A DNA stretch of 64,000 nt. Source: an uncultured SAR86 cluster bacterium. Lineage in GTDB: Bacteria > Pseudomonadota > Gammaproteobacteria > Magnimaribacterales > D2472. Below, one piece after another: positions 24,855 to 64,000 of the stretch. The position numbers and the translations under genes were made by a program. Each line of letters begins with the position of its first letter. The stretch's first letter is position 1. The stretch lies in contig CAXYBK010000003.1 of the NCBI GenBank assembly GCA_964275345.1, positions 569,636 through 633,635 of the forward strand, in the 5' to 3' direction. The notes under the pieces were generated by a model that was not told the origin of the DNA, made no database searches, and was given only the letters and a program-made list of their open reading frames with translations.

Positions 24855-24867
24855 AAAGGGGATAGGT

Positions 24868-25992: not shown

Positions 25993-25993
25993 A

Positions 25994-31609: not shown

Positions 31610-32695
31610 ATGTTTGAGTATTTAGGAACAGTTTTAGTAGATTTTGATCCAGGCTTTGATATTTTAAGATATCTTACTGTTAGAACAATTGGCGGCACCG
31701 TTACCGCACTTCTTATATCTATTTTATTGGGTCCTTTAGTTATAAATCTTTTAAAGAGATTTCAGTTTGAACAACATGTCAGAGTTGATGGACCTAAAAG
31801 TCACTATAAAAAAACTGGTACTCCCACCATGGGGGGATTGCTTATTCTAATGTCACTCGTAATATCAACATTACTTTGGGCTGATTTAAGTAATCGTTAC
31901 ATATGGGTAGTTCTTTTTGTGACTATCTCATTTGGTGTTGTTGGATTTTTAGATGACTTCATTAAAATTAAATCAAAGAGCTCTGATGGATTATCAAGTA
32001 AACAAAAAATCATCCTTCAAAGTTTATTTGCATTTATTGCAACTACGTTTCTGTATTTCTCTGCTGAGACGTCACCTGAAACTGCTTTTATTGTTCCTTT
32101 TTATAAAGATCTCTTGATAAGCATGAGTCCATTTTTATTTATATTTTTAGGTTCTTTTGTTGTTGTTGGATCATCCAACGCAGTTAATCTAACAGATGGC
32201 TTAGATGGGTTGGCAATATTACCGACAATACTTATAGCAGGGGCTTTAGGGTTAATTGCTTATGGGATGGGAAATATCTTAATCGCAGATTATCTTTACT
32301 TGCCTCATTTAGAAATATCTGGGGAATTAGTTGTGTTCTGTGGTGCCTTGATAGGCTCTGGTATAGGATTTTTATGGTACAACACTTATCCAGCGCAGAT
32401 TTTTATGGGAGATGTAGGCTCGCTTACTTTAGGAGCCATTCTTGGAACAATTGCAGTAATATTAAGACATGAATTAGTCTTTGCAATAATGGCTGGAGTC
32501 TTTGTTATGGAAACCTTAAGTGTTGCCATTCAAGTTATATCTTTTAAATTAAGAGGAAAAAGAGTTTTTTTAATGGCGCCAATTCACCACCACTTTGAAT
32601 TGAAAGGCTGGGAAGAGCCTAAAATAATTGTTAGGTTCTGGATCATAACTATTATTTTAATTTTAGTTGCTTTAGCAACATTAAAAATTAGGTAA
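31610..32695 (+). CDS. mraY: Phospho-N-acetylmuramoyl-pentapeptide transferase MraY
   Basis: 361 aa polytopic protein. ..[10 protein letters not shown].., ..[13 protein letters not shown].., ..MGDVGSL.., ..[12 protein letters not shown]... Confidence 0.96.
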
Positions 32696-32707
32696 ATACC
32701 AAGCTTT

Positions 32708-33757: not shown

Positions 33758-34854
33758 TTTATAGAAATAATATTTTCCTTTCAGTTTCTTTTATTGGATT
33801 AATTAGTCTTGGGCTAGTAATGGTCACCTCTTCAAGTATTTATATTGCAGATAATTTAACTGGAAACCCTTTCCATTTTGCAACCAGACAAGCTTTTTTC
33901 ATTGGAGTTGGTATTTTAGTATTTACTATTTTTATATCTATACCATCTTCATTTTTAGAAAAAATAGATTGGCTTTTTTTACTCATTAGCATTGTCCTAC
34001 TTATTGCTCTGTTTGTTCCTGGAATTGGAACTGAGGTTAATGGAAGTATTAGATGGATTAGACTTGGCCCTATTAATGTTCAGCCTGGTGAAGTTTGTAA
34101 ATTTAGTATGATTTTATATACCTCTGGATATTGTGTTAGAAGAATGGGTGAGATAAGTACTCTTAGAGGTTTTCTTAAACCTTTATTGTTGCTAGGATTA
34201 GTCTCTTTTCTAATATTATCTCAACCAGATCTTGGAACTACAGCAATAATATGTGCAGTAGTAGTAGCTATTTTATTCTTTGCTGGAATATCTTTTTTTC
34301 AATTTGTATTGCTTCTTCTTTTAATGGGAACTTTAGGATTTATTGCAATCTATTTCACACCATTTAGATTAACGAGAGTTATGTCATTTATGGATCCATT
34401 TTTAGTACAACAAGGTGCAGGATGGCAACTAAGCAATTCATTAATTGGAATAGGTCAGGCAAATTGGATAGGATTAGGGCTTGGTAATAGTTTTCAAAAA
34501 AACCTATTTCTTCCAGAAGCACATACAGATTTTATTTTTGCTATTCTTGTTGAGGAGCTAGGAATATTTGGAGTTATTTTTTTAATTTCACTTTACTCAT
34601 TTATGATTTTTGCAATTTTTTCAATAGCTATGGAGTCTTTAGCACTAAAGAGGTTTTTTCAGGGTTTTGTTTCTTTTGGCATTGGTTTTTTAATATCAAT
34701 ACAAGCGCTTTTTAATTTAGCAGTTAATATAGGCCTTCTTCCTACAAAAGGTTTAACATTACCCTTTATAAGCTATGGGGGAACTAGCATCATAATAATG
34801 ATGGCTTTTATTGGTATAGTTTTAAGAATCAATAATGAAAATAGATTTTATTAA
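33754..34854 (+). CDS. ftsW: Peptidoglycan glycosyltransferase / lipid II flippase-family protein FtsW (SEDS)
   Basis: 366 aa, about 10 TM segments. SEDS blocks ..RWIRLGPINVQPGEVCKF.., ..QPDLGT.., ..LPEAHTDFIFA.., ..GLTLPFISYGGTS... Confidence 0.93.
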   Translation: MIYRNNIFLSVSFIGLISLGLVMVTSSSIYIADNLTGNPFHFATRQAFFIGVGILVFTIFISIPSSFLEKIDWLFLLISIVLLIALFVPGIGTEVNGSIRWIRLGPINVQPGEVCKFSMILYTSGYCVRRMGEISTLRGFLKPLLLLGLVSFLILSQPDLGTTAIICAVVVAILFFAGISFFQFVLLLLLMGTLGFIAIYFTPFRLTRVMSFMDPFLVQQGAGWQLSNSLIGIGQANWIGLGLGNSFQKNLFLPEAHTDFIFAILVEELGIFGVIFLISLYSFMIFAIFSIAMESLALKRFFQGFVSFGIGFLISIQALFNLAVNIGLLPTKGLTLPFISYGGTSIIIMMAFIGIVLRINNENRFY

Positions 34855-34857
34855 TAT

Positions 34858-35905
34858 ATGAATATTTTAATTGCCGCAGCAAAGACAGGCGGGCATATAT
34901 ATCCAGCAGTATCTGTTGGAAGTGAATTCATTCACAACAATCATAATGTAATCTTTTTAGGGTCAAATAATACTTTAGAAAAAAATGCCCTTAAAAACCA
35001 ACCTGATATTCAATATGAATCAATTCCAATGAAAGGCTTTAGAGGTAATGGATTGGTAAGCAAGTTATTAGTTTTATTCAACCTACCTCTAAATATTTAT
35101 AGCTTAATAAAGCTAATCAAAAAAAATAATGTAGATATTGTGATTGTTTTTGGTGGATTTATTACAATTCCAGCATCTTTTGCTGCATTAATTCTTAGAA
35201 AACCAATATACGTCCATGAGCAAAATACAATTTTAGGTTCAGCTAATAAAATATCCTCATTTTTTTCAAAGAAAAACTTTCTTGGCATGCCTCTTCATAA
35301 TAATAATCTTAAAAAATCAGAGATTGTTGGTAATCCAATTCGAAACTCATTTATACCTTTAATGCAAAAAACATATGATGAAAATGTTCATATATATATA
35401 ACTGGGGGGAGTCAGGGAGCAAAATATCTAAACGATAATCTTCCTGAAATATTAAAAGATATTAAGCACCCTGTATTCATTAAACATCAATGCGGTTCAG
35501 GAAAAAAAGAAGAAGTAGTTAAGTTATATGAGGGTTTTGAGAATGTTGAAGTAGAAGAGTTTTTTGATAACCCTAATTTATTAATTGATTGGTCTGATTT
35601 TGTAATATCTAGATCAGGTGCATTAAGCTTGTCAGAAACAATGTCAATGAATAAAGGGTCACTTATGATACCTCTTGCCCAACGCCATAGATAATCATCA
35701 GTTTTTCAATGCAAAATATATCGAAGAAAAAGGAATGGGAATAATTCATGAACAAAAAAATGGTATTGAGAATTTAAAGGCAGTAATTAATCTTATCTTG
35801 AATGAAAAAAAATATTTAGTTTGGCAAAAAATAAATTTTGAAATTAATCACACTGATGCAGCAAAAAATATTGTTTCATCAATCCTAAATCAGAGTACTG
35901 AATGA
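34858..35905 (+). pseudogene. murG: murG (lipid II-forming GlcNAc transferase), interrupted by a 1-nt frameshift as assembled
   Basis: Two abutting ORFs, 34858..35694 (278 aa; AAKTGGHIYPA.., ..ITGGSQGA..) and 35675..35905 (76 aa; PNAIDNHQFFNAKYIEEKG..). Together they make one normal MurG. The frame switches within ATACCTCTTGCCCAAC (about 35668..35683). Confidence 0.85.
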
Positions 35906-37293
35906 ATCCCTTAAAAAAAATTAAACATATTCACTTTGTCGGTATTGGTGGAGCAGGAATGATTGGCATAGCATATTTACTTTTAAGAAAAGGCTACAAA
36001 GTTAGCGGATCAGATATAAATAAATCAAAATCTTTAAGTAATTTAAAGAAAATAGGAGCAAAGGTTTTTTATACGCATAATGAAGGAAATGTTGGCAAAG
36101 CAGACTTGCTGGTAATGTCTTCAGCAATAAAACCCTCTAATCCAGAATATAGAATTGCAAAAAGAAAAGGTATTACAATTATTCCAAGAGCGCAGATGTT
36201 AGGAAGTTTAATGCGAGGCTATGAAAGTATAGCTGTTGCTGGAAGTCATGGTAAGACAACTACAACGAGCATGATTGCAAATATATTTAGTGAAGCTCTT
36301 TTGAGCCCAACATATATCGTGGGTGGAAAAGTTTTAGGTATTGGAAAAAATTCAGAACTTGGAAGCGGCAATCATCTAATTGCTGAGGCTGATGAGAGCG
36401 ATGGCTCTTTTCTTCACTTACAACCTGATGTTGGAGTTTTTACAAATATTGATAATGATCACTTAAGTTATTATGACAATGATATAGAGAAATTATTAAA
36501 TTCATTTCAAATGTTTGCAGAAAATATACCTTTTTATGGCGCACTTATAATTAATAATGATGATAAAAATGTAAGAGAAGTAGCAAAAAATATTTCAAGA
36601 AGACAAATCTCTTTTGGATTTTCTACAAAAAGTGATTATCAAATTACCAATGCCATTTACAAGAATAATTATCAAAGTTTTAGTCTAGTAAATAATGTTC
36701 TGCAAAAGAAATATTTATTTAGTTTACCAATGCCTGGAAGACATAACTTATACAATGCTGCGGCTGCCATAGCTGCAAGTCTTGAAGAGGGCATACCAAT
36801 AAAATCAATTCAAAAAGGGCTTAAGAACTTTCAAGGTGTTTCAAGAAGATTTGAAAAGCATGAATTAATAATAAAGAAAAAAAATCTAATCCTAATAGAT
36901 GATTACGGACATCATCCTGAAGAAATAAGATCAACAATTAATGCAATCCATCAAGCATTTCCTAAGAAAAAGATTTGTATGATTTTCCAACCCCACAGAT
37001 ACACTAGAACAGCTCAACTTTATGATGATTTCAAGGATGTTTTATCTATGCCAGATTCACTTTTATTATTTGATATTTATCCGGCTAGCGAAGCTCCTAT
37101 AAAAGGCATCTCTTCAAAAAAGCTTTTAGAAAGCATAAAGCAAGATGGCAAGCTTAATGCGAAACTCACGTCTAATAAATCCATACTAGATGACATTAAA
37201 AATTCATACATGGACTTTGATATTTTAGTAACGCAAGGGGCAGGAAGTATTTCATCAGTCTGCGAAGCTATAAAAAAGAAATGGCAGAAATAA
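35902..37293 (+). CDS. murC: UDP-N-acetylmuramate:L-alanine ligase MurC
   Basis: 463 aa. HFVGIGGAGM, P-loop AGSHGKTTTT, ..DDYGHHPEE.., ..FQPHRYTRT... Confidence 0.95.
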   Translation: MNPLKKIKHIHFVGIGGAGMIGIAYLLLRKGYKVSGSDINKSKSLSNLKKIGAKVFYTHNEGNVGKADLLVMSSAIKPSNPEYRIAKRKGITIIPRAQMLGSLMRGYESIAVAGSHGKTTTTSMIANIFSEALLSPTYIVGGKVLGIGKNSELGSGNHLIAEADESDGSFLHLQPDVGVFTNIDNDHLSYYDNDIEKLLNSFQMFAENIPFYGALIINNDDKNVREVAKNISRRQISFGFSTKSDYQITNAIYKNNYQSFSLVNNVLQKKYLFSLPMPGRHNLYNAAAAIAASLEEGIPIKSIQKGLKNFQGVSRRFEKHELIIKKKNLILIDDYGHHPEEIRSTINAIHQAFPKKKICMIFQPHRYTRTAQLYDDFKDVLSMPDSLLLFDIYPASEAPIKGISSKKLLESIKQDGKLNAKLTSNKSILDDIKNSYMDFDILVTQGAGSISSVCEAIKKKWQK

Positions 37294-38207
37294 AAAATAT
37301 TATAGTGCTCTATGGTGGCGCATCCTCTGAGCGAGATATTTCCCTTGAAAGTGGAAAAGGTATTTATGAAGCCTTAGAACAGCTTGGATATCTCGTAACA
37401 CTAAAGGATTATAATGATTTAGGAGAATTAGAAAACTTAAAAGAATATGACCTAGTTTTTATAGCCTTACATGGATTTGAAGGAGAATCAGGTATCTTAC
37501 AAAAAAATTTAGATAACCTCGGTATTCTTTATACGGGTTCAAAATATCTATCCTGTAAAAATACATGGAATAAAACTAGATTTAAAGATATTTTAGAATC
37601 TGCACTTATACCGACACCAAGAGGTTTTTCAGTAGAGAGAATTCATTCAGACATGCAATCCCCATTCAATAACTTTCATAAAAAATATAGTGAAGATATT
37701 CAAAATTTATTTCTAAAACCTGAAGAGGATGGTTCTAGTGTAGATATTTTTGAGGTCAATTGTGAAGGCGACCTTGAGCATGCAATAAGAGATGCACAAA
37801 ATCCAAATAGAGCATTTATATTTGAAGAATCAATTAAATTTAAAGAATTTACAGTTTCTATTCTTGATAACAAATGCTTGCCAGTAATTGAAATCAAGAC
37901 CACTAATAGTTTTTATGACTATGATGCAAAATATATTTCAGAGACTACTCAATTAATAGAGGCTGATCTAGATGAAAAAAATAAAAATAAGATTCATGAT
38001 ATGGCTTTAAAAGCCTTTAAAGAACTAGGTTGCTTAAAATGGGGAAGAGTGGATATCCTTCAAGATAAGAATGAACAATTCTATATCTTAGAAATTAATA
38101 CAGTGCCTGGAATGACTTCACATAGTTGCCTTCCAAAGGCAGCGGAGATATTAGGGGTTTCATATAAAGAGCTTGTTCAAAGAATCATTCAAGATGCTCA
38201 CTTATAA
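37281..38207 (+). CDS. ddl: D-alanine:D-alanine ligase
   Basis: 308 aa. ..VLYGGASSERDISL.SG.., ..ALHG..GE.G.LQ.., ATP-grasp C-terminus ..EINTVPGMTSHS..P. Confidence 0.93.
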   Translation: MAEIKNIIVLYGGASSERDISLESGKGIYEALEQLGYLVTLKDYNDLGELENLKEYDLVFIALHGFEGESGILQKNLDNLGILYTGSKYLSCKNTWNKTRFKDILESALIPTPRGFSVERIHSDMQSPFNNFHKKYSEDIQNLFLKPEEDGSSVDIFEVNCEGDLEHAIRDAQNPNRAFIFEESIKFKEFTVSILDNKCLPVIEIKTTNSFYDYDAKYISETTQLIEADLDEKNKNKIHDMALKAFKELGCLKWGRVDILQDKNEQFYILEINTVPGMTSHSCLPKAAEILGVSYKELVQRIIQDAHL

Positions 38208-38820
38208 ATACTTTTTCCCAGTTGTTTTATTAATAATATTATCTTCATGCAGTAACTTTAAGAACATTGAAGTATTTTTTGAAGATGGTTTTTTGTATGC
38301 AGCTCAAAAGGATTTGATATCTGAATTAAAACTTGTCACAACTAGAAAAGAAATAAAAACAACGTTATCAAAGCAAGAATGGATTGAGGACTTTAAGATA
38401 AAATTTAGGATTAATGGCAATATAAAAGTAATTATTAAAACCAAGATTCCTATTTTTATTTGGAATGAGAAATATTATGTTGATACTAATATGAAAACAT
38501 TTGGTTTTGATAAATCTAACCATCGTTTAATCAATGTATTTTGTCCTAGCAATCAGCTAAATCAAGCAAGAGATTTGATAGATTTTATAAATACCTCATT
38601 AATATCAGATCAAATTAGCTTTAAGAAACTTGATTTTAAATATTCCTCAGGATGGATATTACTTTCTAATACTACTGAGATAAAGTTTGGAAAAAATATC
38701 ACAACAGCTAGATTAAATTCTTTTAGACAAAGCTTGAATTATGTATACGAAAGTAAGTCTATACCTAGTATGATAGATTTAAGATATAAAGATGGAGTAG
38801 CATTCGATTATGGCAAGTAA
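38194..38820 (+). CDS. ftsQ: Cell division protein FtsQ (short; no cytoplasmic tail)
   Basis: ORF 38173..38820. ATG at 38194 gives MLTYKYFFPVVLLIILSSCSNF.. followed by POTRA/FtsQ-like beta-rich domains. Conserved slot between ddl and ftsA. Start is TTG 38173 or ATG 38194. Confidence 0.75.
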   Translation: MLTYKYFFPVVLLIILSSCSNFKNIEVFFEDGFLYAAQKDLISELKLVTTRKEIKTTLSKQEWIEDFKIKFRINGNIKVIIKTKIPIFIWNEKYYVDTNMKTFGFDKSNHRLINVFCPSNQLNQARDLIDFINTSLISDQISFKKLDFKYSSGWILLSNTTEIKFGKNITTARLNSFRQSLNYVYESKSIPSMIDLRYKDGVAFDYGK

Positions 38821-40039
38821 TTCTTCAAAAGAATCAAATATTGTAGTTGGCCTAGATATTGGGACTTCTAAGATTGTTTGTATTGTAGGTCAGTATGATT
38901 CACAGGATAATCTAGAAATTATTGCATTAGGGTCATATCCCTCCAGCGGCTTAAAAAAGGGCGTAGTTGTGAATATAGATGTCACAACTGATGCAATTCA
39001 AAAAGCAGTTGAGCAAGCTCAATCTATGATTGAAGAAAAAATTAAATCAGTCTTTGTTGGAATTGCAGGAAATCATATTAGAAGCTTCAATTCCCAAGGG
39101 ATAGAAGCTATTAAAGATAAAGAAGTCTCATCATCTGACATAGAAAGAGTAATTGAATCTGCTCAGGCCATTGCTATACCTTCAGATCAAAAAGTATTAC
39201 ATGTAATACCTCAAGAGTTTGTAATAGATGATCAGGATTGCATAAAGGATCCCCTAGGAATGTCTGGAGTAAGATTGGAAGCAAGGGTTCATTTGGTAAC
39301 ATGTTCGAACAATGCAGTTATGAATATTGAAAAATGTGTAAAAAATTGTGATCTTAAAGTTGAAGGTTATGTACTTGAACAATTAGCAAGTTCTCACTCA
39401 ATACTATCTGATGACGAAAAAGACCTTGGAGTTTGTTTAGTAGATATTGGAGGAGGAACCACTGACATAGCAATTTTTCAAGCTGGCTCAATTGGTTTTA
39501 CAGGAAATATTCCAATTGCTGGAGATATGGTAACTAATGACATTGCAGTTGCTTTAAGGACCCCAACACCAGAAGCTGAAGATATTAAACAAAGACAAGG
39601 TTGTGCAGTCCCAGAATTTACTAATGATGAAGAGGTTATAGAAGTGAGAGGAGTTGGTGGAAGACCTCCAACTGAGCTTGCAAGAAGAACCTTAGCAGGC
39701 TTTATAGAGCCTAGATATATTGAGTTATGTCAATTAGTTAAAGCTGAAATAAGCAGAAATGGATTTGAAGATAAAATCCCAGCTGGAATTGTATTAACTG
39801 GTGGTACATCAAAGATGGAGGGCGTTGTTGAATTGGCTGAGTCAATATTCCAAACAAGTGTAAGACTAGGAGTTCCTTCTAAATTTCAAGGTATGGAAAA
39901 TATTCTTCAAAATCCAATATATGCAACGTCAATTGGTTTAGTGTCGCATGGACATATTCAGAAGAAGGATAACTATATCCTAGAAAATAACCAAAGCCTT
40001 ATTTCAAAGTTTTTAAATTGGGCTAAAGGTGAGTATTGA
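38810..40039 (+). CDS. ftsA: Cell division protein FtsA
   Basis: 409 aa. Actin-fold motifs VGLDIGTSKI, DIGGGTTDIA, LTGGTS. Confidence 0.95.
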   Translation: MASNSSKESNIVVGLDIGTSKIVCIVGQYDSQDNLEIIALGSYPSSGLKKGVVVNIDVTTDAIQKAVEQAQSMIEEKIKSVFVGIAGNHIRSFNSQGIEAIKDKEVSSSDIERVIESAQAIAIPSDQKVLHVIPQEFVIDDQDCIKDPLGMSGVRLEARVHLVTCSNNAVMNIEKCVKNCDLKVEGYVLEQLASSHSILSDDEKDLGVCLVDIGGGTTDIAIFQAGSIGFTGNIPIAGDMVTNDIAVALRTPTPEAEDIKQRQGCAVPEFTNDEEVIEVRGVGGRPPTELARRTLAGFIEPRYIELCQLVKAEISRNGFEDKIPAGIVLTGGTSKMEGVVELAESIFQTSVRLGVPSKFQGMENILQNPIYATSIGLVSHGHIQKKDNYILENNQSLISKFLNWAKGEY

Positions 40040-42626: not shown

Positions 42627-43675
42627 AGGAACCATCTGCAGAACTCACAATTGATATAAATATTATTCGAAATAATATTGTCTATTTAAAATCATTTCTT
42701 AATCCAAGTACTAAATTTATGGCTGTATTAAAAGCCAATGCCTATGGACATGGTCTAGAAAAAATTGCTGAAGGTATAAATGATATTGTAGATGGTTATG
42801 GACTGGTTCGAATTGAAGAAGCCCTTAATGTAAGGAAATTTTCAAATAAAAAAATACTTTTGATGCAGGGGTTATATAACAAAGATGACTTAGATCTGGC
42901 TACTGAAAATAATTTTGATACAGTTGTTCACAATCAAGATCAATTATTTATTTTAGATAATGAGATTATTCATTCATGGGTGAAAGTTAATACTGGAATG
43001 AATCGATTAGGGTTTTCACCCAAAGAATTTTTTAAAATTTACGAAAGTAGATTGATTAATAGAGAATTTACATTAATGTCTCATCTGGCTTGTTCAGATA
43101 ATCCTTCCGATGAATTAAATTTAAAACAATTTAGTTCATTTGACGATATTTCAAAATCACTAAAAAAAATCATTCCAAAAAGTATTGCCAATACAGGCTG
43201 CATATTAAATTTTCCTCAAAAAAATTTTGATTGGGTTAGATCAGGCATTGGTTTATATGGTGGATTTATCGGGAATGATATTCTGGAATCAGCTATGACA
43301 TTTAGATCACAGATTATTGAAATAAAAAATATAAGAAAAGGCGACAGGGTTGGCTATAACGGAAGAGCAACAGCGCCACATGATATGAATATAGCAATTG
43401 TTTATGCAGGTTATGCAGATGGCCTCCCTCAAGCGACATTTGATAATACAAAGGTTTTGATAAATAACATTTCAGCAAATATTTTTGGTCAGGTAAGCAT
43501 GGATTTACTCTCTATAGACATTACAAATATTCCAAACTCCAAGATTGGTGATTGGTGTATTTTTTGGGATAAAAATAATTCTATTAAAAACTTAGCAACG
43601 AGAAATAATTTGATTTCATATGAACTTATGACTAGGATAAGTCCAAGAGTAAAAGTTATTTATAAAAATTCATGA
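42623..43675 (+). CDS. alr: Alanine racemase
   Basis: 350 aa. PLP-lysine motif AVLKANAYGHG. ..VKVNTGMNRLGF... Conserved dnaB-alr adjacency. Confidence 0.9.
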   Translation: MKEPSAELTIDINIIRNNIVYLKSFLNPSTKFMAVLKANAYGHGLEKIAEGINDIVDGYGLVRIEEALNVRKFSNKKILLMQGLYNKDDLDLATENNFDTVVHNQDQLFILDNEIIHSWVKVNTGMNRLGFSPKEFFKIYESRLINREFTLMSHLACSDNPSDELNLKQFSSFDDISKSLKKIIPKSIANTGCILNFPQKNFDWVRSGIGLYGGFIGNDILESAMTFRSQIIEIKNIRKGDRVGYNGRATAPHDMNIAIVYAGYADGLPQATFDNTKVLINNISANIFGQVSMDLLSIDITNIPNSKIGDWCIFWDKNNSIKNLATRNNLISYELMTRISPRVKVIYKNS

Positions 43676-44751
43676 AAATTAATTACATACAAGAAAATTT
43701 ACGAAAGATTACCTATGAGGAAGATCTTCCTGAGTACATGACTGAAAAGCATGCTGAAGACATAGCTGAGGTATTTCATACACCACTCCAGGGAACCTAT
43801 AACTGGGATTATAGAATCCAAGATAATAGGATTAAAAGATTATATGAATTAGGTAAAGAATTAAATTGGAATGTTGAAATGGACATTGATTGGAATAGAC
43901 CATATGAAGAACTTAAGGAGCCATATCCTATCTTTTGGGACGACTACCCGCCTTACCAAAAAATGACTGACAAAAAGAAAGTTGAATTTTTAAGGCATAG
44001 ACAAGCATGGAGCATGAGCCAATTTTTACACGGAGAACAAGGTGCTGTTTTAGTTGCCTCGCAGCTAACGAGTTGCGCCCCTACTTTTAATGCAAAACTA
44101 TATGCTGCATCACAAACTTTTGATGAGGCTAGACATGTCGAAGCATTTAATAAATATATTCAAACTAGAACAAAGTTAATGTATCCAGTTGGCAATGAGC
44201 TTAAATCAATTCTTGACAAAATTCTTACAGATGAAAGATGGGATCTTAAATTTATTGGTATGCAAATTATTATTGAAGGTTTAGCATTAGCAGCATTTCA
44301 ATCCTCTCGAGACTTAACTCCGGATCCAGTGTTAAAAGATATGCTTGGATTAATAATAAGAGACGAAGCAAGACATGTAACTTTTGGTGTTAACTACCTA
44401 GAAGATTTTATATCAACTTTATCTGAAGATCAGATAGAGGAGAGGGCTCAGTTTGCATATGAGGCCTGTTTGTTAAGCCGTGAGAGACTTGTATCAAATG
44501 ATGTTTTTGATCATTTTGGATGGGATAAAGAAGAATCACGAATATTTCAACAATCTTCAGATATTACTAAAATGTTTCAAAAATTACTCTTCCAAAGAAT
44601 TGTACCTAATCTATCTAGAATTGGTCTTTTAACTGATTCTGTAAGAGGAAAGTTCGATAAACTTGGATTACTTGAGTATGAAGATGCTCAGAGTGATATC
44701 GATGTAGATTGGGCTGATTTATCTAGACCTTTATTTGAAGATTCTGCTTAA
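43672..44751 (+). CDS. Ferritin-like di-iron carboxylate protein (AurF / R2-like oxidase superfamily), function unknown
   Basis: 359 aa with the duplicated di-iron signature E...ExxH: ..LHGEQGAV..(about 40 aa)..FDEARHVEAF.. and ..IIIEGLALAAF..(about 30 aa)..IRDEARHVTFG... No signal peptide. Confidence 0.55.
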   Translation: MKINYIQENLRKITYEEDLPEYMTEKHAEDIAEVFHTPLQGTYNWDYRIQDNRIKRLYELGKELNWNVEMDIDWNRPYEELKEPYPIFWDDYPPYQKMTDKKKVEFLRHRQAWSMSQFLHGEQGAVLVASQLTSCAPTFNAKLYAASQTFDEARHVEAFNKYIQTRTKLMYPVGNELKSILDKILTDERWDLKFIGMQIIIEGLALAAFQSSRDLTPDPVLKDMLGLIIRDEARHVTFGVNYLEDFISTLSEDQIEERAQFAYEACLLSRERLVSNDVFDHFGWDKEESRIFQQSSDITKMFQKLLFQRIVPNLSRIGLLTDSVRGKFDKLGLLEYEDAQSDIDVDWADLSRPLFEDSA

Positions 44752-53203: not shown

Positions 53204-54214
53204 ATGGCTACAGACAAAACTAAAGATCTTAAAGAGACCCTAAGTCAAATTGAAAAACAGTTTGGCAAAGGAACAGTAATGAGAATGGGCGACAAAGAAA
53301 TTTTAGATATACCTTCTATTTCAACAGGTTCAGTTGGCTTAGATATAGCACTTGGTATAGGCGGCATTCCGCAAGGAAGAGTAACAGAGATATATGGCCC
53401 GGAATCATCAGGTAAGACTACATTAACACTTCAGATTATTGCTGAATGTCAAAAAAAGGGCGGAACAGCTGCTTTCATTGATGCTGAGCATGCATTAGAT
53501 CCTCAATATGCAGGAAAACTTGGAGTAAATGTAGATGATCTACTTTTATCTCAGCCAGATACTGGTGAGCAAGCATTAGAAGTAGCTGATATGTTAGTAA
53601 AATCTAATAGTGTAGATTTGGTTGTTGTTGACTCAGTTGCAGCCCTTGTTCCAAGAGCAGAAATTGAAGGTGAGATGGGAGATCATCATGTTGGCCTTCA
53701 GGCAAGGTTAATGTCACAGGCTTTAAGAAAGATCACTGGTAATATTCAGCGCTCAGGAGCAACTGTGATTTTTATAAATCAAATTCGAATGAAAATAGGA
53801 GTTATGTTTGGAAGTCCTGAGACAACAACTGGTGGAAATGCTCTTAAATTTTATTCATCTGTAAGACTCGACATCCGTAGAATTGGTGCAGTCAAAGAGG
53901 GTGACGAAGTGATAGGAAATGAAACAAGAGTTAAAGTTGTTAAAAATAAAGTTTCACCTCCTTTTAGACAGGCAGAATTTCAAATTATGTATGGTCAAGG
54001 AATTAATTCAGAAGGTGAGATTTTAGACTTCGGTCAAAAATTAGGCGTTATTGAAAAAGCTGGATCTTGGTATAGTCATAATGGAGAAAAAATTGGGCAA
54101 GGAAAAGTTAATGCAAGTACTTTTCTAAAAGAAAATACTGCAATAAGAGATGCTTTATTAAAAGATATTAGAGCTGAATATATTGTTTCAAACGCAAAAC
54201 CTTCCAAGAAATAG
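53204..54214 (+). CDS. recA: Recombinase RecA
   Basis: 336 aa. ..[16 protein letters not shown].., Walker [10 protein letters not shown], ..[11 protein letters not shown].., ..VVVDSVAAL... Confidence 0.98.
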
Positions 54215-55468: not shown

Positions 55469-55567
55469 TTATTTCTATTATAAATAGATATATCTAATCT
55501 TTGATCAATTTTTTATATATTGGCATGACTTGTGTCAATATTTATTACGTATACAATTAATATTGCT

Positions 55568-57574
55568 ATGAGGATTTTAAGGGGTATTTTTCTATTGCTA
55601 TTTTTGATGGCAATTCTTATTTTTTTTCATTTCTTAAAAACATCTACTGGAACTAATCAACAGGTTCAATTTTCTCTTGATGAATCCTATTACTTAGAAG
55701 ACATCGTTTCTAAAAACAAAACACAATCAGATCCTAATCCAAATAAAAATGCATATTTTGGAGACTTGCATATTCATACATCTAATTCTTTTGACGCATA
55801 TACATTTGGGACTTTGAGTACACCAAAAATAGCCTATAAATATGCTCAAGGTGAATCAATTCCTCACCCAACAGGATACGATATTCAGCTTAGAAGACCC
55901 CTTGATTTTTATGCTGTTACTGATCATGGTTTTTTCTTAGGACTATTACCAAGTGCAGCAGATACAAGCTCGCTATTTTCTAAATATGAATATACTAAAT
56001 CTCTTCATAATTTGAACGATTCAGTCTCTAATAATCTTTTTGACCTTTTTAAGAGAAGTACCCTTTTTAGAAATTTTGCTAGAGACACAATTGATGGGCT
56101 TAGTGATGGAACTATTGACAGAAATCTTATAGATGATATTCAAGAGAGCGTTTGGAAGGAAACAATCAAAGCAGCAGATGATGCCTATAAGCCTGGAGTT
56201 TTTACAACCTTTGCTGGCTATGAATTCACTTCTGCTGAGGATTTGTATGATAACTATCTTCATCGTAATGTTATATTTGAAAATACAGAAAATTTGCCAA
56301 ATAAAATTTTTTCAAGACTAGACAGCATGAATCCAGAGCCACTATGGGAATGGATGAATAATCTCAGAGATAATGGAGTTGATAGTTTAGCCATTCCACA
56401 TAATTCAAATATCTCAGGCGGGACAGCCTTTCCAATGAATTATTTCAATGGGGATCTCATTGATGACGCATACGCAACAATGAGATCATTAAATGAACCT
56501 CTTGTAGAAATTACTCAGGTTAAAGGAACTTCAGAAACACACCCATTACTTTCAAAAAATGATGAGTGGGCTTCATTTGAAACTGAATCGCCATCTGAAG
56601 AATCAAATGATATGAAAAATATAAAAGGTGCATATGTTAGAAATGCTTATTTAAGAGGAATGGCTATTGAAGAAAAAGGAATTGCAAACCCTTATAAGTT
56701 TGGCTTGATTGGTTCTAGCGATAGTCATGTAGGAGGTGCTTCATATAATGAAGAAACCTTTATTTCTAAAGTAGGTGTCTTGGATGGCACCCCTAGATTA
56801 AGGGGCTCAGTGCCATTTAACAAATTTTATGGTTTTACAATTAGCAAACTTCGTCCTAATTCAATGTCTAATATTGATGATAAATATTACTTAAAGGTAG
56901 GTGATAGACTTATATATTTTGGTGCATCTGGTCTAGCTGGAGTATGGGCAGAAGAAAATACAAGAGAATCTATATTTAGAGCTTTACGAAATAAAGAAAC
57001 ATTTGCAACATCTGGTCCTAGAATTAAAGTGAGGTTCTTTGGAGGCTATGATTTAGAAAATCATGATCTCAATGACGATAACCTTATTAAAAAAGCATAT
57101 GCCATGAACACACCAATGGGTGGAAATATTTATTCCAACGAATTAAGTAGTCCAACGTTCTTAATATGGGCAATCTCAGATCCTTTAGGAGGTTTATTGC
57201 AAAGATCTCAAATAGTTAAAGGATGGATAGAAAATGGAGAGCATAATGAAAAGGTCTATGATGCAGTTTGCTCAGATGGCTTAGAAATTGATCCAGAAAC
57301 TCATCGTTGCGCAAGTAATGAGGCCAAAGTAAATCTTAGTGATTGTTCTACTAGTAATGTTGGTAATTCAGAATTAAAAACTTTATGGAAAGATCCAGAT
57401 TTTAAAAAGAATCAAAATGCTTTTTATTATGTTCGCGTTATAGAGAATCCTGCATGTAGATGGTCTACGTGGGACTCAATTAGAGCTGGAGAAAAACCAA
57501 GATCTGATATAGATGCAACCATTCAAGAAAGAGCTTGGTCATCACCTATTTGGCTTAAAACAACAGTTGATTAA
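55568..57574 (+). CDS. DUF3604-family protein (PHP-like metal-dependent hydrolase fold), secreted or membrane-anchored, function unknown
   Basis: ORF 55532..57574. ATG 55568 gives MRILRGIFLLLFLMAILIFF (signal/anchor). ..AYFGDLHIHTSNSFDAY.., ..FYAVTDHG.., ..GYEFTS.., ..IPHNSNISGG.., ..GSSDSHV.., ..ERAWSSPIW. These match my recollection of DUF3604 conserved blocks. Confidence 0.7.
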   Translation: MRILRGIFLLLFLMAILIFFHFLKTSTGTNQQVQFSLDESYYLEDIVSKNKTQSDPNPNKNAYFGDLHIHTSNSFDAYTFGTLSTPKIAYKYAQGESIPHPTGYDIQLRRPLDFYAVTDHGFFLGLLPSAADTSSLFSKYEYTKSLHNLNDSVSNNLFDLFKRSTLFRNFARDTIDGLSDGTIDRNLIDDIQESVWKETIKAADDAYKPGVFTTFAGYEFTSAEDLYDNYLHRNVIFENTENLPNKIFSRLDSMNPEPLWEWMNNLRDNGVDSLAIPHNSNISGGTAFPMNYFNGDLIDDAYATMRSLNEPLVEITQVKGTSETHPLLSKNDEWASFETESPSEESNDMKNIKGAYVRNAYLRGMAIEEKGIANPYKFGLIGSSDSHVGGASYNEETFISKVGVLDGTPRLRGSVPFNKFYGFTISKLRPNSMSNIDDKYYLKVGDRLIYFGASGLAGVWAEENTRESIFRALRNKETFATSGPRIKVRFFGGYDLENHDLNDDNLIKKAYAMNTPMGGNIYSNELSSPTFLIWAISDPLGGLLQRSQIVKGWIENGEHNEKVYDAVCSDGLEIDPETHRCASNEAKVNLSDCSTSNVGNSELKTLWKDPDFKKNQNAFYYVRVIENPACRWSTWDSIRAGEKPRSDIDATIQERAWSSPIWLKTTVD

Positions 57575-58859: not shown

Positions 58860-60140
58860 TTACTTATCTTTAAAAAATTCTAATATAGTTTCTATATCAG
58901 AAATCGGATTAAGAGAGCTTTCGCCACTTCTAGATTTTAATTCAACCTCTTTATTTTCAGTAAATTGCTTACCAATGATAATATTTAATGGGATACCAAT
59001 TAATTCAGAATCTTTTATCTTTGTACCATAGCCATCTTTTCTGTCATCTAGTAAAACCTCATAACCCATTTCTTTAAGTTGCCCATATAGATCATTAGCA
59101 GCGGTAGCAATTTCTTGATTTTTATCATATCCAATAGCAATAATATTAATATCATATGGAGCAATACTATGAGGCCAAATAATCCCTTTATCATCATTAT
59201 TTTGTTCAATTGCTGCTGCAACTAATCTTGAAACTCCAATACCATAGCAACCCATAAACAAGGTAGATGCTTTGCCTTCTTTGTTGAGAACATTTGCCTT
59301 CATTGAGTCAGCATATATTTCGCCCAATTTAAATATATGGCCAACTTCAATACCTTTTTTAATTTGAATTGTTCCATTACCATCAGGTGAAGGCTTGCCT
59401 TCAAGTGTTTTAATGTCTTCACCATCTTTTAATAACAGCTCTGTATTTATTGCAAATTCAGAAGCATCACTCACAGCAATTGTATCTTCTCCATTGTCTG
59501 CCAATACATGAAACTCTTCAGAGCTATCTCCTCCTATCGCACCAGAGTCAGCTGCTGAAATTCTATATTCAAGATCCATCCTTTCAAGTACTTTTTTATA
59601 AGTATCTCTCATAGTTAAGTATGTTTCTTGCAGAGATTCTTCATCAATATTGAAGCTATACGAATCTTTCATGAGAAATTCTCTTCCTCGCATAATTCCA
59701 TATCGAGGCCTTACCTCATCTCTAAATTTTGTTTGTATTTGATAAATATTTAATGGAAGCTCCTTATAGCTTTTTACATTAGAGCGAATTACATCAGTTA
59801 TAACTTCCTCATGCGTTGGACCAAGACAAAAATCTCTATCATGCCGATCTTTAATTCTTAATAATTCAGGACCCATTTTGTCCCATCTCTTTGTTTCCTC
59901 CCAAAGCTCCCTTGGTTGAACCATTGGCATAAAAACCTCTTGGGCGCCTGATGCATCCATCTCTTCTCTAACAATATTCTCAATCTTTCTAAGAACCTTT
60001 AATCCAAGAGGAAGCCAGGTATATATACCAGATGCAACTTTTCTAATCATGCCTGCCCTTAACATAAGCTTATGGCTGATTACTTCTGCCTCTTGAGGAG
60101 CATCTTTTAAAGTTGGTAATAATAATTTTGAAAGCAGCAT
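58860..60140 (-). CDS. proS: Prolyl-tRNA synthetase, bacterial type but lacking the INS editing domain
   Basis: 426 aa. Motif 2 FRDEVRPRYGIMRGREFLMKDSYSF, motif 3 region FMGCYGIGVSRLVAAAIEQ, class II anticodon-binding C-terminus. Only about 27 residues lie between ..AINTEL.. and ..GIEVGHIF... Confidence 0.92.
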   Translation of the reverse strand: MLLSKLLLPTLKDAPQEAEVISHKLMLRAGMIRKVASGIYTWLPLGLKVLRKIENIVREEMDASGAQEVFMPMVQPRELWEETKRWDKMGPELLRIKDRHDRDFCLGPTHEEVITDVIRSNVKSYKELPLNIYQIQTKFRDEVRPRYGIMRGREFLMKDSYSFNIDEESLQETYLTMRDTYKKVLERMDLEYRISAADSGAIGGDSSEEFHVLADNGEDTIAVSDASEFAINTELLLKDGEDIKTLEGKPSPDGNGTIQIKKGIEVGHIFKLGEIYADSMKANVLNKEGKASTLFMGCYGIGVSRLVAAAIEQNNDDKGIIWPHSIAPYDINIIAIGYDKNQEIATAANDLYGQLKEMGYEVLLDDRKDGYGTKIKDSELIGIPLNIIIGKQFTENKEVELKSRSGESSLNPISDIETILEFFKDK

Positions 60141-60498: not shown

Positions 60499-62268
60499 AT
60501 GCGATCTCATTATTGTGGTGAAGTTACATTAAAAGATCTCGATACTAATATTTCTATATGTGGCTGGGTCCACAGAAGAAGAGATCATGGCGGTATTATT
60601 TTCTTAGATATAAGAGATATAAGAGGAATATGTCAGGTTGTTGTGAATCCTGAAAATAACATAGCTTTTGAGATTGCAGATAATTGTAGAAATGAATTTG
60701 TAATTAAGGTGACCGGTAAAGTTTTAAAAAGACCTGATGGAACTATTAATACTAATATGGTTACAGGAGAAATTGAATTAGAGGCTGAAGATATTAAACT
60801 TTTTAATAAAGCTGTTACCCCTGCATTTCCGTTAGATGATTATCAGGATGTCAACGAAGACGTTAGATTAAAAAATAGAGTTTTAGATTTAAGAAGGCCT
60901 GAAATGAATAATAGGTTAGTAACTAGATCTAAAATTACCTCAGTTATAAGAAGCTTTCTAGAGGTAAATAATTTTCATGAAATTGAAACACCAATTTTAA
61001 CTAGAGCTACACCTGAAGGCGCACGAGACTATATTTTGCCAAGCAGGGTACATCCGGGGAGCTTCTTTGCATTACCGCAATCACCTCAATTATTTAAGCA
61101 GCTGTTAATGATGGGGGGATTTGATAAATATTATCAGATTGCGAGATGCTTTAGAGATGAAGATCTTCGAGCTGATCGACAGCCTGAATTTACTCAGATA
61201 GATATAGAAGCTTCTTTTGTTGAAACTCAAGATATTATCTCTACTGGAACAGAGATGATGAAACTTCTTTTAGATAAATTTGTTAATCATAGTATTAAAG
61301 AAATTCCTTCATTGTCTTGGCACCAATCCATGGAGGATTATGGCTGCGATAAGCCTGATTTAAGAATTCCATTAAAGCTTGTAGAAATTTCTGAATTAGT
61401 TGCGGATGAAGAGTTTAAAGTTTTCTCAGGACCCGCTAATGATAAAGATTCAAGGGTTGTTGCTCTCAAAATTCCTAATGGAAACTCTCTATCAAGAGGT
61501 CAGATTGATGAATATACTAAATTTGTAGGGAAACTTGGAGCTAAGGGACTTGCTTATATTAAAGTAAATGATGTAAATGATCTTGAGAGTGGTCTGCAGT
61601 CGCCTATTTTAAAATTTTTAAATCAAGATACTGTAAAAAGTTTAATAGATAATCTTCAACTTAAAACTGATGATCTTCTATTTTTTGGCGCTGGTTCTAA
61701 TAATATTGTTAATCTTAGTATGAGTAGCTTGATTAAAAAGATTGGTAAAGATCTTGATCTCTATTCTTGTAAATGGGCGCCATGTTGGATAATTGATTTT
61801 CCAATGTTTGAAAAAAATAAAGATGGTAATTTAACTTCATTACATCACCCATTTACTATGCCTAAATCATCGCTAGATGAGTTAGTTAATTCCCCAGAAG
61901 ATGTTATTGCTGAAGCCTATGATATTGTTTTGAATGGTTATGAGGTTGGTGGGGGATCTTTAAGGGTCCATAACCCAAGTATGCAAGAAGCAATTTTTAA
62001 AGCTTTAAATATTTCTGATGAGGAAGCTCAAAATAAATTTGGTTTTTTACTAAAGGCCTTATCTTCGGGTTGTCCGCCTCATGGTGGAATAGCATTTGGA
62101 TTAGATCGTCTTGTTATGCTTTTAACTGATACAACGAATATAAGGGACGTTATAGCATTCCCTAAGACTCAAAGCGCTTCATGCTTATTAACAGATGCTC
62201 CAAATTCTGTTGATGAAGATCAATTAGAAGAATTATTTATTGAGTCTACCTATAAAGAGGAAGATTAA
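60499..62268 (+). CDS. aspS: Aspartyl-tRNA synthetase
   Basis: 589 aa. MRSHYCGE.., ..GWVHRRRDHGG.IFLD.RD.., ..FRDEDLRADRQPEFTQID.., ..GGIAFGLDRLVMLL... Confidence 0.97.
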   Translation: MRSHYCGEVTLKDLDTNISICGWVHRRRDHGGIIFLDIRDIRGICQVVVNPENNIAFEIADNCRNEFVIKVTGKVLKRPDGTINTNMVTGEIELEAEDIKLFNKAVTPAFPLDDYQDVNEDVRLKNRVLDLRRPEMNNRLVTRSKITSVIRSFLEVNNFHEIETPILTRATPEGARDYILPSRVHPGSFFALPQSPQLFKQLLMMGGFDKYYQIARCFRDEDLRADRQPEFTQIDIEASFVETQDIISTGTEMMKLLLDKFVNHSIKEIPSLSWHQSMEDYGCDKPDLRIPLKLVEISELVADEEFKVFSGPANDKDSRVVALKIPNGNSLSRGQIDEYTKFVGKLGAKGLAYIKVNDVNDLESGLQSPILKFLNQDTVKSLIDNLQLKTDDLLFFGAGSNNIVNLSMSSLIKKIGKDLDLYSCKWAPCWIIDFPMFEKNKDGNLTSLHHPFTMPKSSLDELVNSPEDVIAEAYDIVLNGYEVGGGSLRVHNPSMQEAIFKALNISDEEAQNKFGFLLKALSSGCPPHGGIAFGLDRLVMLLTDTTNIRDVIAFPKTQSASCLLTDAPNSVDEDQLEELFIESTYKEED

Positions 62269-63005
62269 TGGCCGGACATTCCAAGTGGGCAAATATAAAG
62301 CATAGAAAAGCTAGGCAGGATGCTTCTAGAGGTAAAGTTTGGACTAAAGTAATTAGAGAAATTACAGTTGCTGCTAAAGCTGGTCCTGACCCTGCTGATA
62401 ATCCCAGGCTAAGACTGGCGCTAGATAAAGCTAATGCTTCTAATATGCCAAAAGATACTATTAAAAGAGCAATTCAGAAGGGCTCTGGAACTGGTGAGAT
62501 GGGAGCAATTGAAGAAATTACATTTGAAGGATATGGACCAAATGGAGTTGCTATATTAGTTGAAACAATGACTGATAATAGAAATAGAACAGTTGCTGAT
62601 GTTAGACATGCTTTTTCTAAATTTGGTGGAAACTTGGGAACAGATGGCTCAGTTGCTTATTTGTTTAATAAAATTGGTGTGATTAATATTGCAAGCTCTT
62701 ATGATGAGGACGTTGTTATGGAGATTGCGCTTGATGCAGGTGCTGATGATATGACATCATCTGAAGATGGGTATGAAGTTATTACTAGTTCAGTAAATTT
62801 GAGTAAAGTTTTAGAAGCTTTAACAGCCAATAATATAGAAACAATTGAAGCTGAAGTTGCAACAAGAGCAGATGTTTTAGTAGATCTAGATGCTGAAGCA
62901 TCAGAAAAGGTTTTAAAGATTATGAATTTTATGGATGATCTTGATGATGTTCAAGAAGTTCATACTAACGGAGAATTTGCAGATGATTTTGAGATTGAGG
63001 AATAA
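62268..63005 (+). CDS. yebC: YebC/PmpR-family DNA-binding regulator / translation factor
   Basis: 245 aa. MAGHSKWANIKHRKARQDASRGKVWTK.. . Start overlaps the aspS stop (TAATG). Confidence 0.95.
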   Translation: MAGHSKWANIKHRKARQDASRGKVWTKVIREITVAAKAGPDPADNPRLRLALDKANASNMPKDTIKRAIQKGSGTGEMGAIEEITFEGYGPNGVAILVETMTDNRNRTVADVRHAFSKFGGNLGTDGSVAYLFNKIGVINIASSYDEDVVMEIALDAGADDMTSSEDGYEVITSSVNLSKVLEALTANNIETIEAEVATRADVLVDLDAEASEKVLKIMNFMDDLDDVQEVHTNGEFADDFEIEE

Positions 63006-63007: not shown

Positions 63008-63433
63008 TTGCCAGTTAATTCAAGAGCTAAAGGTGCAAATTTTGAAAGAGAAATTGGGAACTTATTAGTGCAAGATCTAAATTTAACTAATCCAGTTAAA
63101 AGGATTCTTGAGCAAACTAGAACAAAAGAATTACCAGATTTAAGGCTTGGAAGATGGTGTATTGAATGTAAAAGATATGGAGACGGTGGCGAGCCCCCAA
63201 AAGATTGGTGGGAGCAGGTTTTAAGATCTTGTTCTGAAGAATCGCTGATGCCAGCTCTTATTTATAAATTTAATAGAAGACCTATTAAGGTTAGATTATT
63301 AGCGTCTTCGATTAATCCATTAATACAAAATAAACTTATAACTGTAGATCTCTTATGGGATGATTTCATAGAAATTATTCTTGAGCTATTTCAAAAAGAT
63401 ATTCAACTTCATGAAGAAAGATTTCAAGTGTAA
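63008..63433 (+). CDS. Small PD-(D/E)XK (restriction-endonuclease-fold) nuclease, Hjc/RecU/VRR-NUC-like; candidate Holliday-junction resolvase
   Basis: 141 aa. TTG start 2 nt after the yebC stop. N-terminal helix RAKGANFEREIGNLL (E13), ..LPDLRL.. (D44), ..CIECKRY.. (E53-x-K55). Occupies the position of ruvC-ruvA-ruvB between yebC and ybgC. Confidence 0.5.
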   Translation: MPVNSRAKGANFEREIGNLLVQDLNLTNPVKRILEQTRTKELPDLRLGRWCIECKRYGDGGEPPKDWWEQVLRSCSEESLMPALIYKFNRRPIKVRLLASSINPLIQNKLITVDLLWDDFIEIILELFQKDIQLHEERFQV

Positions 63434-63818
63434 TGATTTTCCTTTAACAGTATTTTGTGAAGATACTGATTTTCAAGGAATTGTCTACCATGCTAATTAT
63501 TTAAAGTATTTTGAAAGAGCAAGAACTCAATTTTTAATTGATCAAAATATATCCCAAATTTCGTTAGCATCTTCAAGTTTAGCCTTTGTAATTAGAGATA
63601 TAAATTTAAGATATCTCACTCCAGCAAAGCTTGAAGATAAGCTTGTAGTTTCTAGTAGCGTGCAATGCATTTCAAGAGCAAGATTGCTATTTTCCCAACA
63701 AATAATTAATCCAAAAAATGATACTATTATATGTCGTGGTGAGATTGAGGTATGTTTCTTAGATTTATCTAAAAATAAACCTAAATCTTTCCCTGAAAAT
63801 TTATTAAAAATTTTTTAA
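63411..63818 (+). CDS. ybgC: Tol-Pal-associated acyl-CoA thioesterase YbgC (4HBT hot-dog fold)
   Basis: ATG 63411 gives MKKDFKCNDFPLTVFCEDTDFQGIVYHANYLKYFERART.. (the track ORF starts 30 nt earlier at a non-ATG codon). Directly upstream of tolQ. Confidence 0.88.
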   Translation: MKKDFKCNDFPLTVFCEDTDFQGIVYHANYLKYFERARTQFLIDQNISQISLASSSLAFVIRDINLRYLTPAKLEDKLVVSSSVQCISRARLLFSQQIINPKNDTIICRGEIEVCFLDLSKNKPKSFPENLLKIF

Positions 63819-63830: not shown

Positions 63831-64000
63831 ATGAATGATATATCTACAATCAACTTATTTCTTGAAGCTGGATTAGTTGTTAAAAGTGTTATGGCAATAT
63901 TGTTATTAATTTCTTTATTTTCTTGGATAATAATTTTTGAAAGATACTTTCTTTATAGAAAAATAAAAAGTTTAAATATTGAGTTTGAAAATAAATTTTG
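63831..64000 (+). CDS. tolQ: TolQ, N-terminal part only (runs off the window)
   Basis: Absent from the track (open at the window end). Translation MNDISTINLFLEAGLVVKSVMAILLLISLFSWIIIFERYFLYRKIKSLNIEFENKF resembles the E. coli TolQ N-terminus (..ILDLFLKASLLVK..SWAIII.R...). Confidence 0.85.
   Translation, partial: MNDISTINLFLEAGLVVKSVMAILLLISLFSWIIIFERYFLYRKIKSLNIEFENKF

Follow-up and report, generated by a model that had tools for sequence, protein, structure and literature searches.

We analysed a 64,000-nt stretch of chromosome (the window) from an uncultured SAR86 cluster bacterium, a marine gammaproteobacterium (assembly GCA_964275345.1, contig CAXYBK010000003.1, positions 569,636 to 633,635), an AT-rich piece of core chromosome with ~32% GC, and focused on a small gene near its end that encodes a predicted nuclease of the PD-(D/E)XK type and a candidate Holliday junction resolvase. 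The nuclease gene (63008..63433, + strand; 141 aa, TTG start) lies between yebC, of the TACO1/YebC family (62268..63005, +; Pfam TACO1_YebC_N and Transcrip_reg), and ybgC, which encodes the 4HBT thioesterase of the Tol-Pal operon (63411..63818, +; Pfam 4HBT_2 and 4HBT). Upstream of yebC is the aspartyl-tRNA synthetase gene aspS (60499..62268, +; Pfam tRNA-synt_2, GAD and tRNA_anti-codon), whose stop overlaps the yebC start, and ybgC is followed by the 5’ part of tolQ (63831..64000, +), cut by the end of the window; in identical contigs (L005-L007) the downstream genes run tolQ-tolR-tolA-tolB-pal-ybgF (MotA_ExbB, ExbD, TonB_2, TolB_N, OmpA and TPR domains). In Pseudomonas aeruginosa (PA0963-PA0972) the equivalent order is aspS-PA0964(yebC)-ruvC-ruvA-ruvB-ybgC-tolQRAB. 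The SAR86 yebC-ybgC interval thus has the canonical flanks and a single 426-nt gene where there are usually three.

The nuclease gene is joined closely to both neighbours. Only 2 nt separate the yebC stop codon (TAA, 63003-63005) from the TTG, a Shine-Dalgarno-like GAGGA (62997..63001, +) that could serve translation of the nuclease lies within the yebC 3’ end, 6 nt 5’ of the TTG, and the ybgC ATG at 63411, which is also the start used in public annotations, falls 23 nt inside the nuclease open reading frame (ORF). The 2-nt gap and the 23-nt overlap, together with the TTG start, the length of 141 codons and tolQ as the next gene, had been described in the initial annotation of this DNA and was confirmed from the sequence. 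The stretch from aspS to tolQ contains no terminator on the + strand and no promoter above chance, consistent with a single operon, and the nuclease gene appears to be expressed from an aspS-yebC-X-ybgC-tolQRAB operon in close coupling with its neighbours.

Database searches returned 452 homologs of the nuclease protein, and identical proteins were found in NCBI metagenome-assembled genomes (MAGs) labelled SAR86 or Gammaproteobacteria. In a scan of one genome per species, relatives were encoded by 231 GTDB species representatives, and the best 80 of these, at 67-96% identity, come almost without exception from SAR86, with long contigs and a complete chromosome of 1.30 Mb among them. We compared 87 loci of the D2472 type, which form the sample for all counts of start codons, gaps and overlaps, and found the order aspS-yebC-ORF-ybgC-tolQ-tolR in every one of them (87/87). 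The nuclease starts with TTG in 69/87 loci and with ATG at the same codon in the other 18/87, which validates the TTG start. The gap to yebC measures -1 to 4 nt in 86/87 loci, the exception being a yebC cut at a contig end. The nuclease ORF runs 23 nt into ybgC in 85/86 loci, and GAGG or GGAG motifs occupy the site equivalent to the GAGGA in many of the orthologous loci sampled. The junction geometry from which translational coupling had been proposed is therefore real and conserved at both ends of the gene; the coupling itself we infer from that geometry. The ratio of nonsynonymous to synonymous substitution rates (dN/dS) of the nuclease is ~0.03-0.08 in unsaturated pairs, similar to that of aspS and yebC and well below that of ybgC. 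A chance ORF is ruled out by this conservation and dN/dS, and the nuclease ORF is a real, strongly constrained core gene.

We assigned the protein to a family using profile searches. It matches the Pfam family PF24608, PDDEXK_15 (‘Phage putative PDDEXK endonuclease’), over residues 4-100, scoring 44.2 bits (cutoff 27; E=2.5e-11), and the same family is matched by all 83 sequences (83/83) in an alignment of diverse relatives that spans 26-62% identity. At E<=1 the nuclease has no Pfam match to RuvC (PF02075), RecU (PF03838), RusA (PF05866) or VRR-NUC (PF08774), and membership in any of these families is ruled out by the lack of hidden Markov model (HMM) matches; the earlier statement that the protein shows no RuvC (RNase H-fold) pattern agrees with this result. 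Pfam Hjc (PF01870) likewise has no match to the nuclease at E<=1 and matches 4/83 of the relatives weakly (best 2.4e-4), Mrr_cat has no match to the nuclease itself, and searches of NCBIfam and of PDB sequences with the single protein gave nothing meaningful. Two further Pfam matches, Ribosomal_L25p and DUF2126 (E ~0.05-0.07, below their cutoffs), were treated as noise. Among phage protein families the nuclease matches PHROG 244 (phrog_244, 8e-14), which is assigned to DNA metabolism and bears the label ‘RusA-like Holliday junction resolvase’; ‘RusA-like’ is here a functional label and, as to structure, a misnomer, because the fold is PD-(D/E)XK and not that of RusA. Automated names given to orthologs (P0344, P0060 and P0026) also differ: UniRef A0A381TJZ6 is called ‘Holliday junction resolvase’, A0A520MCC6 ‘Restriction endonuclease type IV Mrr domain-containing protein’, and ‘hypothetical/uncharacterized’ occurs as well.

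The fold closest to the predicted structure is that of archaeal Hjc. An AlphaFold model built from an alignment of 28 SAR86 orthologs (predicted local distance difference test score, pLDDT, 82; predicted template modelling score, pTM, 0.80) has helices at residues 5-23 and 65-74, strands at 45-47, 50-57, 81-88 and 94-98, and C-terminal helices at 117-138, and it fits an alpha-beta-beta-beta-alpha-beta core carrying an E...D...ExK constellation. When the model was compared with the PDB by Foldseek, archaeal Hjc chains (A. fulgidus, S. tokodaii and P. furiosus) took ranks 1-9, 11, 12, 14 and 16-19, with probabilities of 0.60-1.0 (>=0.90 except at rank 18, and 0.95-1.0 for the best-ranked chains), E-values of 1e-3 to 8e-2 and template modelling (TM) scores of 0.38-0.55; the best-aligned chains superposed over 93-98 residues at ~3.3-3.5 Å, and no RecU chain was among the top 50 matches. 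The initial annotation had expected such a search to return Hjc, RecU, VRR-NUC or phage resolvases and had called the residue spacing typical of Hjc, RecU or VRR-NUC nucleases; the Hjc part of that assignment is supported, on both profile and fold evidence, and the RecU and VRR-NUC parts fall with the missing HMM matches. In BFVD, the proteins that the model matched over its full length (TM 0.73-0.78, E down to 5e-12) are uncharacterised ones from phages; the matches that bear a name are Hjc or other resolvases of phages or archaeal viruses.

Sequence profiles pointed in the same direction. A profile of the 83 relatives searched against PDB sequences found as its best matches the Hjc proteins of P. 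furiosus, S. solfataricus, A. fulgidus and S. tokodaii, at weak E-values of 0.035-0.8, and hhalign of the same profile against three Hjc sequences gave a probability of 96.5% over 93 columns. The profile-Hjc alignment pairs K8-G9, E13, D44 and E53-x-K55 with the signature and catalytic residues of Hjc, such that E13 falls on the catalytic glutamate of the Hjc KGxxxER motif and the ExK on the Hjc IEVK. In the window these residues are encoded at 63044..63046 (E13, the first acidic predicted catalytic residue, within a KGxxFER motif), 63137..63139 (D44, the D of PD) and 63164..63172 (E53-C54-K55, with E53 at 63164-63166 and K55 at 63170-63172), all on the + strand and at the residue numbers first assigned to them. 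All four residues, E13, D44, E53 and K55, are invariant in the 28 SAR86 orthologs, and E13 is invariant in all four alignments examined. Down to 26% identity, the 83-relative alignment keeps G9, E13 and K55 invariant, and R6, K8, R32, Q36, D44, E53, W67, W68, Q70 and P82 are conserved in >=90% of its sequences. Together these comparisons support the nuclease as a PDDEXK_15 member with a predicted Hjc-like fold, outside the Hjc Pfam family proper.

The relatives of the nuclease are mostly viral. An exhaustive search of 1.84 billion representative sequences returned 271 clusters at E<=1e-3, and in IMG/VR at least 477 viral contigs carry relatives with 36-50% identity. A scan of 66 neighbouring genes from viral contigs found DNA polymerase A with a 3’-5’ exonuclease, primase/helicase, RecE-like exonuclease VIII (DUF3799), PDDEXK_14 and DUF932. 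Among annotated phages, the relative in phage C72C1 lies near a Sak-type annealing protein, a single-stranded DNA-binding protein (SSB) and a replication initiator, and that in Roseobacter phage CRP-701 lies near a second PD-(D/E)XK nuclease, an SSB and a primase/helicase. PDDEXK_15 is thus overwhelmingly a viral nuclease family of phage replication and recombination modules. In modules of this type, phages usually carry a junction-resolving or debranching enzyme. Of the relatives that do not occupy the SAR86 slot, P0129 is the nearest (47% identity), and it shares the SAR86-type signature RILxQxRxKxLPDL; it is encoded on phage-like metagenome contigs (L094-L096; gene at L094:5718-6125), directly after a RecE-like exonuclease VIII (DUF3799) and near a Toprim/VapE primase, and its lineage is possibly the donor of the SAR86 gene or a phage that infects SAR86.

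A second bacterial group, recovered from marine metagenomes, extends the conservation of the locus well beyond the D2472 type. It comprises 252 relatives whose ORF is 55-62% identical to that of the window, with deeply divergent flanking genes (AspS 54-58%, YebC 52-57% and YbgC 34-41% identity), and in all loci with enough room the ORF lies between yebC (64/64 upstream) and ybgC-tolQ-tolR (70/70 downstream). The ORF is thus present in all 87 D2472-type loci as well as in this divergent group. In the divergent group it is 136-139 aa long, mostly starts with ATG and keeps all catalytic residues; it begins ~17-22 nt after yebC and overlaps ybgC by 15-21 nt (contigs L179-L256), which makes the coupling to ybgC the more conserved of the two junctions. 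A bootstrapped neighbour-joining tree with Hjc as its root shows monophyly for the D2472-type group (97%), for the divergent group (100%) and for both combined (95%), and it places the P0129 phage group as their sister with a weak support of 57.5%. The simplest reading is a single phage capture that predates the split of these SAR86 lineages, with vertical descent thereafter as a core housekeeping gene. Capture would have taken place no later than in the ancestor shared by the two sampled SAR86 (Magnimaribacterales) groups, at the site where ruvC-ruvA-ruvB usually lie in proteobacteria, and its direction was probably from phage to bacterium, because the viral distribution is broad and the bacterial one confined to a single clade. 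The nuclease reading of the initial annotation is supported; a phage origin had not been anticipated in it.

We next turn to the genes that the nuclease would have displaced. Genome-wide absence of RuvABC was taken from a published marker table (Table S1 of PMC11582366, with 47 genome columns examined). According to this table, from Ramfelt et al. 2024, RuvA_C (PF07499), RuvB_C (PF05491), RuvC (PF02075) and RadA (TIGR00416) are absent from the closed genome of HIMB1674, MutL, MutS and Rep are also among the absent markers, and YqgF/RuvX, RecO, RecR and RecF are present; the main text adds that 27/28 of the markers missing from HIMB1674 are systematically absent across 732 environmental SAR86 genomes, both MAGs and single-amplified genomes (PMC11582366). 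The loss of DNA-maintenance genes in SAR86 is unusually broad for a free-living bacterium. Other markers that the same table lists as missing from SAR86 are RF3, BioB, LolA/LolD and SRP/FtsY-type proteins. The table can be tied to our loci directly: SAR86A (GCA_000252525.1), one of its entries, carries the nuclease ORF in its slot (scaffold L070), and two further accessions, of genus SCGC-AAA076-P13, appear to correspond to the ORF-bearing loci L066 and L023. The single MAG that scores 1 for RuvA and RuvC in the columns examined has 4.3% contamination. In our own data, E. coli RuvA, RuvB and RuvC probes, validated by Pfam, had no tblastn match, whether in the window or across the 3.09 Mb of loci retrieved, and the window contains no ruv or recG genes, the rest of it being ordinary core genome.

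These absences stand out against the bacterial norm: RuvAB is missing from fewer than 2% of the bacteria sequenced, and most of those are parasites (PMC3403352). The yebC-ruvC neighbourhood is itself documented, and STRING neighbourhood links join RuvA, RuvB and RuvC with YebC, YbgC, TolB, TolQ and TolR (PMC3403352). Displacement of RuvCAB in situ by the nuclease gene, as first put forward in the initial annotation, is supported because the slot is fixed across SAR86 and RuvA, RuvB and RuvC are published as absent in the marker table (PMC11582366). The words ‘Holliday’, ‘resolvase’ and ‘ruv’ do not occur in the main text of that paper, and our literature search found no published replacement resolvase for SAR86 and no link of RuvABC loss to PDDEXK_15. 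The PDDEXK_15 family, one automatically named ‘Holliday junction resolvase’ entry in UniProt and the loss of RuvABC in a supplementary table were known already; we found no earlier description of the connection between them.

Combining these results, we propose that a domesticated phage Hjc-like resolvase is the junction-resolving enzyme of the SAR86 cell, acting on RecA-made junctions without RuvAB, a reading to which we give a probability of roughly 60%. Since recA is retained, junctions should still form in SAR86. In the mechanism that we envisage, RecA would form four-way junctions, the nuclease, presumably as an Hjc-like homodimer, would bind them structure-specifically, and paired nicks made through a metal site of E13, D44, E53 and K55 would yield ligatable duplexes. 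Hjc-type and phage resolvases are largely sequence-independent, whereas RuvC and RusA need the junction to be moved to cognate sequences. Such sequence independence could make a dedicated RuvAB motor dispensable, and whatever branch migration is needed might be supplied by RecA itself, or by RecG in case it is present; the question of branch migration is the sharper because RadA is absent too. Junction specificity, dimerisation, the role in vivo and the direction and timing of the transfer are the inferred parts of this account.

Several points weigh against this proposal. The likeness to Hjc is remote (Foldseek E ~1e-3 and TM 0.45-0.55, profile E 0.035), and the ~40 C-terminal residues have no Hjc counterpart. 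To our knowledge no PDDEXK_15 member has been characterised biochemically, and none was found in our literature search; junction cleavage, binding and dimerisation are predicted properties of the family. Where PHROGs and UniProt use the name ‘resolvase’, it was assigned automatically, and the labels conflict with one another. PD-(D/E)XK folds serve many functions, and with MutS, MutL and Rep also absent from SAR86, the nuclease could offset another loss. HIMB1674, the genome that anchors the published absences, was not among the named records with the ORF in our homology search and cluster look-up. Finally, a search of the PMC11582366 supplement gave no entry for RecG or RecQ, and any contribution of RecG is conjectural.

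Some of these points lend weight to an alternative in which the protein is an active structure- or damage-specific nuclease whose main job is not at Holliday junctions but at stalled or reversed forks, at flaps, or in EndoMS/NucS-like or Vsr-like repair that offsets the loss of MutS and MutL, and in which the slot is a historical accident. The published absence of MutS, MutL, RadA and Rep from SAR86, the functional diversity of PD-(D/E)XK domains (PMC3424549), the remoteness of the Hjc likeness, and one homolog in a T5-like phage (H4) that adjoins a flap endonuclease gene would all fit such a role. However, Hjc comes first each time in the fold and profile comparisons, with no NucS, Vsr or MutH among the top 50; the phage relatives lie beside recombination genes, among them those for an annealing protein, SSB and a RecE-like exonuclease; throughout bacteria, it is this position beside yebC that neighbourhood links associate with RuvC (PMC3403352); and with RecA retained the junctions need a resolver. 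We therefore regard a repair role away from junctions as unlikely, and prefer the resolvase reading.

The overwhelmingly viral character of PDDEXK_15 also raises the prospect that a phage nuclease, whether domesticated or selfish, settled in a permissive operon and acts outside repair, for instance in Mrr-type defence or as a toxin, and in line with this one ortholog carries the name ‘Restriction endonuclease type IV Mrr domain-containing protein’ in UniProt and Pfam Mrr_cat is matched by 2/83 of the relatives. Defence genes are typically patchy and fast-evolving. The SAR86 gene, by contrast, holds a single fixed position in every recovered locus with a dN/dS (0.03-0.08) like that of the flanking housekeeping genes. 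That it is monophyletic and keeps its slot points to vertical descent, and its surroundings contain no methylase partner, antitoxin or mobility gene. With no match to any PADLOC defence model and with the behaviour of a fixed core gene, a defence nuclease was rejected, and a non-repair role of this general kind is very unlikely. Still less probable, in our judgement, is a non-catalytic DNA- or RNA-binding protein that serves its neighbours, through YebC-linked translation or regulation or through Tol-Pal and cell division. The tight joining of the gene to yebC and ybgC-tolQRAB in one operon would suit such a protein, and inactive PD-(D/E)XK homologs do exist (PMC3424549), but four catalytic residues that are invariant across SAR86 and nearly so across the family are unexpected for an inactivated scaffold, and canonical ruvCAB shares this operon context without a functional part in Tol-Pal.

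The proposed SAR86 resolvase resembles several known enzymes in part. With archaeal Hjc (PF01870; PDB 1gef, 1hh1, 2wcw and 2eo0) it shares a PD-(D/E)XK domain of ~120-140 aa, the order and spacing of E...D...ExK, and the N-terminal K-G-x-x-x-E-R; it differs in having ~20% identity, no PF01870 match and an extra C-terminal helical region of ~40 aa, it is found in bacteria and phages and not in archaea, and its activity is predicted. True Hjc has been recorded in only a handful of bacteria (PMC3424549). T7 endonuclease I (PF05367) belongs to the same PD-(D/E)XK superfamily, and the phage members of PDDEXK_15 lie in the same type of module (DNA polymerase A, primase/helicase and exonuclease), whereas the two are separate Pfam families, T7 endonuclease I has a domain-swapped architecture, and its HMM does not match the ORF. 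RusA, of the E. coli cryptic prophage DLP12, is known from rus suppressors, which demonstrate that in a gammaproteobacterium the task of RuvABC can be taken over by a resolvase from a phage. Unlike the SAR86 gene, RusA (PF05866) has an unrelated fold, is sequence-selective and RecG-dependent, and served as a laboratory suppressor rather than as a fixed core gene (RusA and RecG are summarised in PMC3403352). A precedent for a lineage-wide exchange is RecU, a PD-(D/E)XK resolvase that replaces the RNase H-fold RuvC throughout Firmicutes and Mollicutes; those lineages keep RuvAB and carry recU outside the ruv locus (PMC3403352), whereas in SAR86 RuvAB is gone and the replacement lies inside the ruvCAB slot, with no RecU HMM match. 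PF24608 itself is described as a family carried by phages, with a putative function; within it, the SAR86 sequences form a chromosomal, vertically inherited branch in a core operon.

SAR86 is free-living and globally abundant, and it has lost RuvA, RuvB, RuvC and RadA while keeping RecA, against a near-universal presence of RuvAB in bacteria, which makes the nuclease a specific and testable candidate for resolving its recombination intermediates. The cluster accounts for roughly 2-6% of surface-ocean cells. If the proposal is right, SAR86 would provide a natural and ancient counterpart of the laboratory suppression of ruv mutants by RusA, and a more radical swap than that of RecU for RuvC, with the replacement in the very locus that was displaced. 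It would also give a function to the large phage family PDDEXK_15, offer a clear example of a phage gene domesticated while a genome was being streamlined, and bear on the interpretation of recombination rates and population genetics in SAR86. A cultured isolate, HIMB1674, exists, so the hypothesis is directly testable. As a tentative and rather doubtful extension, SAR86 may resolve recombination with no dedicated branch-migration motor at all (no RuvAB, no RadA and possibly no RecG), relying on a single phage-derived Hjc-like resolvase, a minimal archaeal- or viral-type system that would have been fixed for the whole history of the order.

Other features of the window are those of a core chromosome. 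The recA gene (53204..54214, +) was identified by its Pfam domains, RecA_N and RecA_C, both in relatives and in L005, an identical contig (198-1208), and it lies ~9 kb upstream of the nuclease gene both here and in relatives of 73% identity. A dcw cluster at 24387-40039, annotated by Pfam and through identical contigs, runs mraZ-ftsZ-rsmH-ftsL-ftsI-murE-murF-mraY-murD-ftsW-murG-murC-ddl-ftsQ-ftsA and is followed by rpsF-rpsR-rplI; ftsZ (24868-25992) comes directly after mraZ and not after ftsA, and no lpxC follows the cluster. Between alr and pyrG lies an AurF-like (PF11583) gene of the di-iron oxygenase family (43672-44751, +). The prolyl-tRNA synthetase gene (58860-60140, - strand) encodes a protein of 426 aa with tRNA-synt_2b and HGTP_anticodon domains, short for a gammaproteobacterium, which suggests that its INS editing domain has been lost. 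A DUF3604 gene (55532-57574, +) stands between a thiolase gene and a Band_7 gene, and since the DUF3604 and Band_7 genes are missing at that site in the 73%-identity relatives (L001-L004), they form a small variable island near recA.

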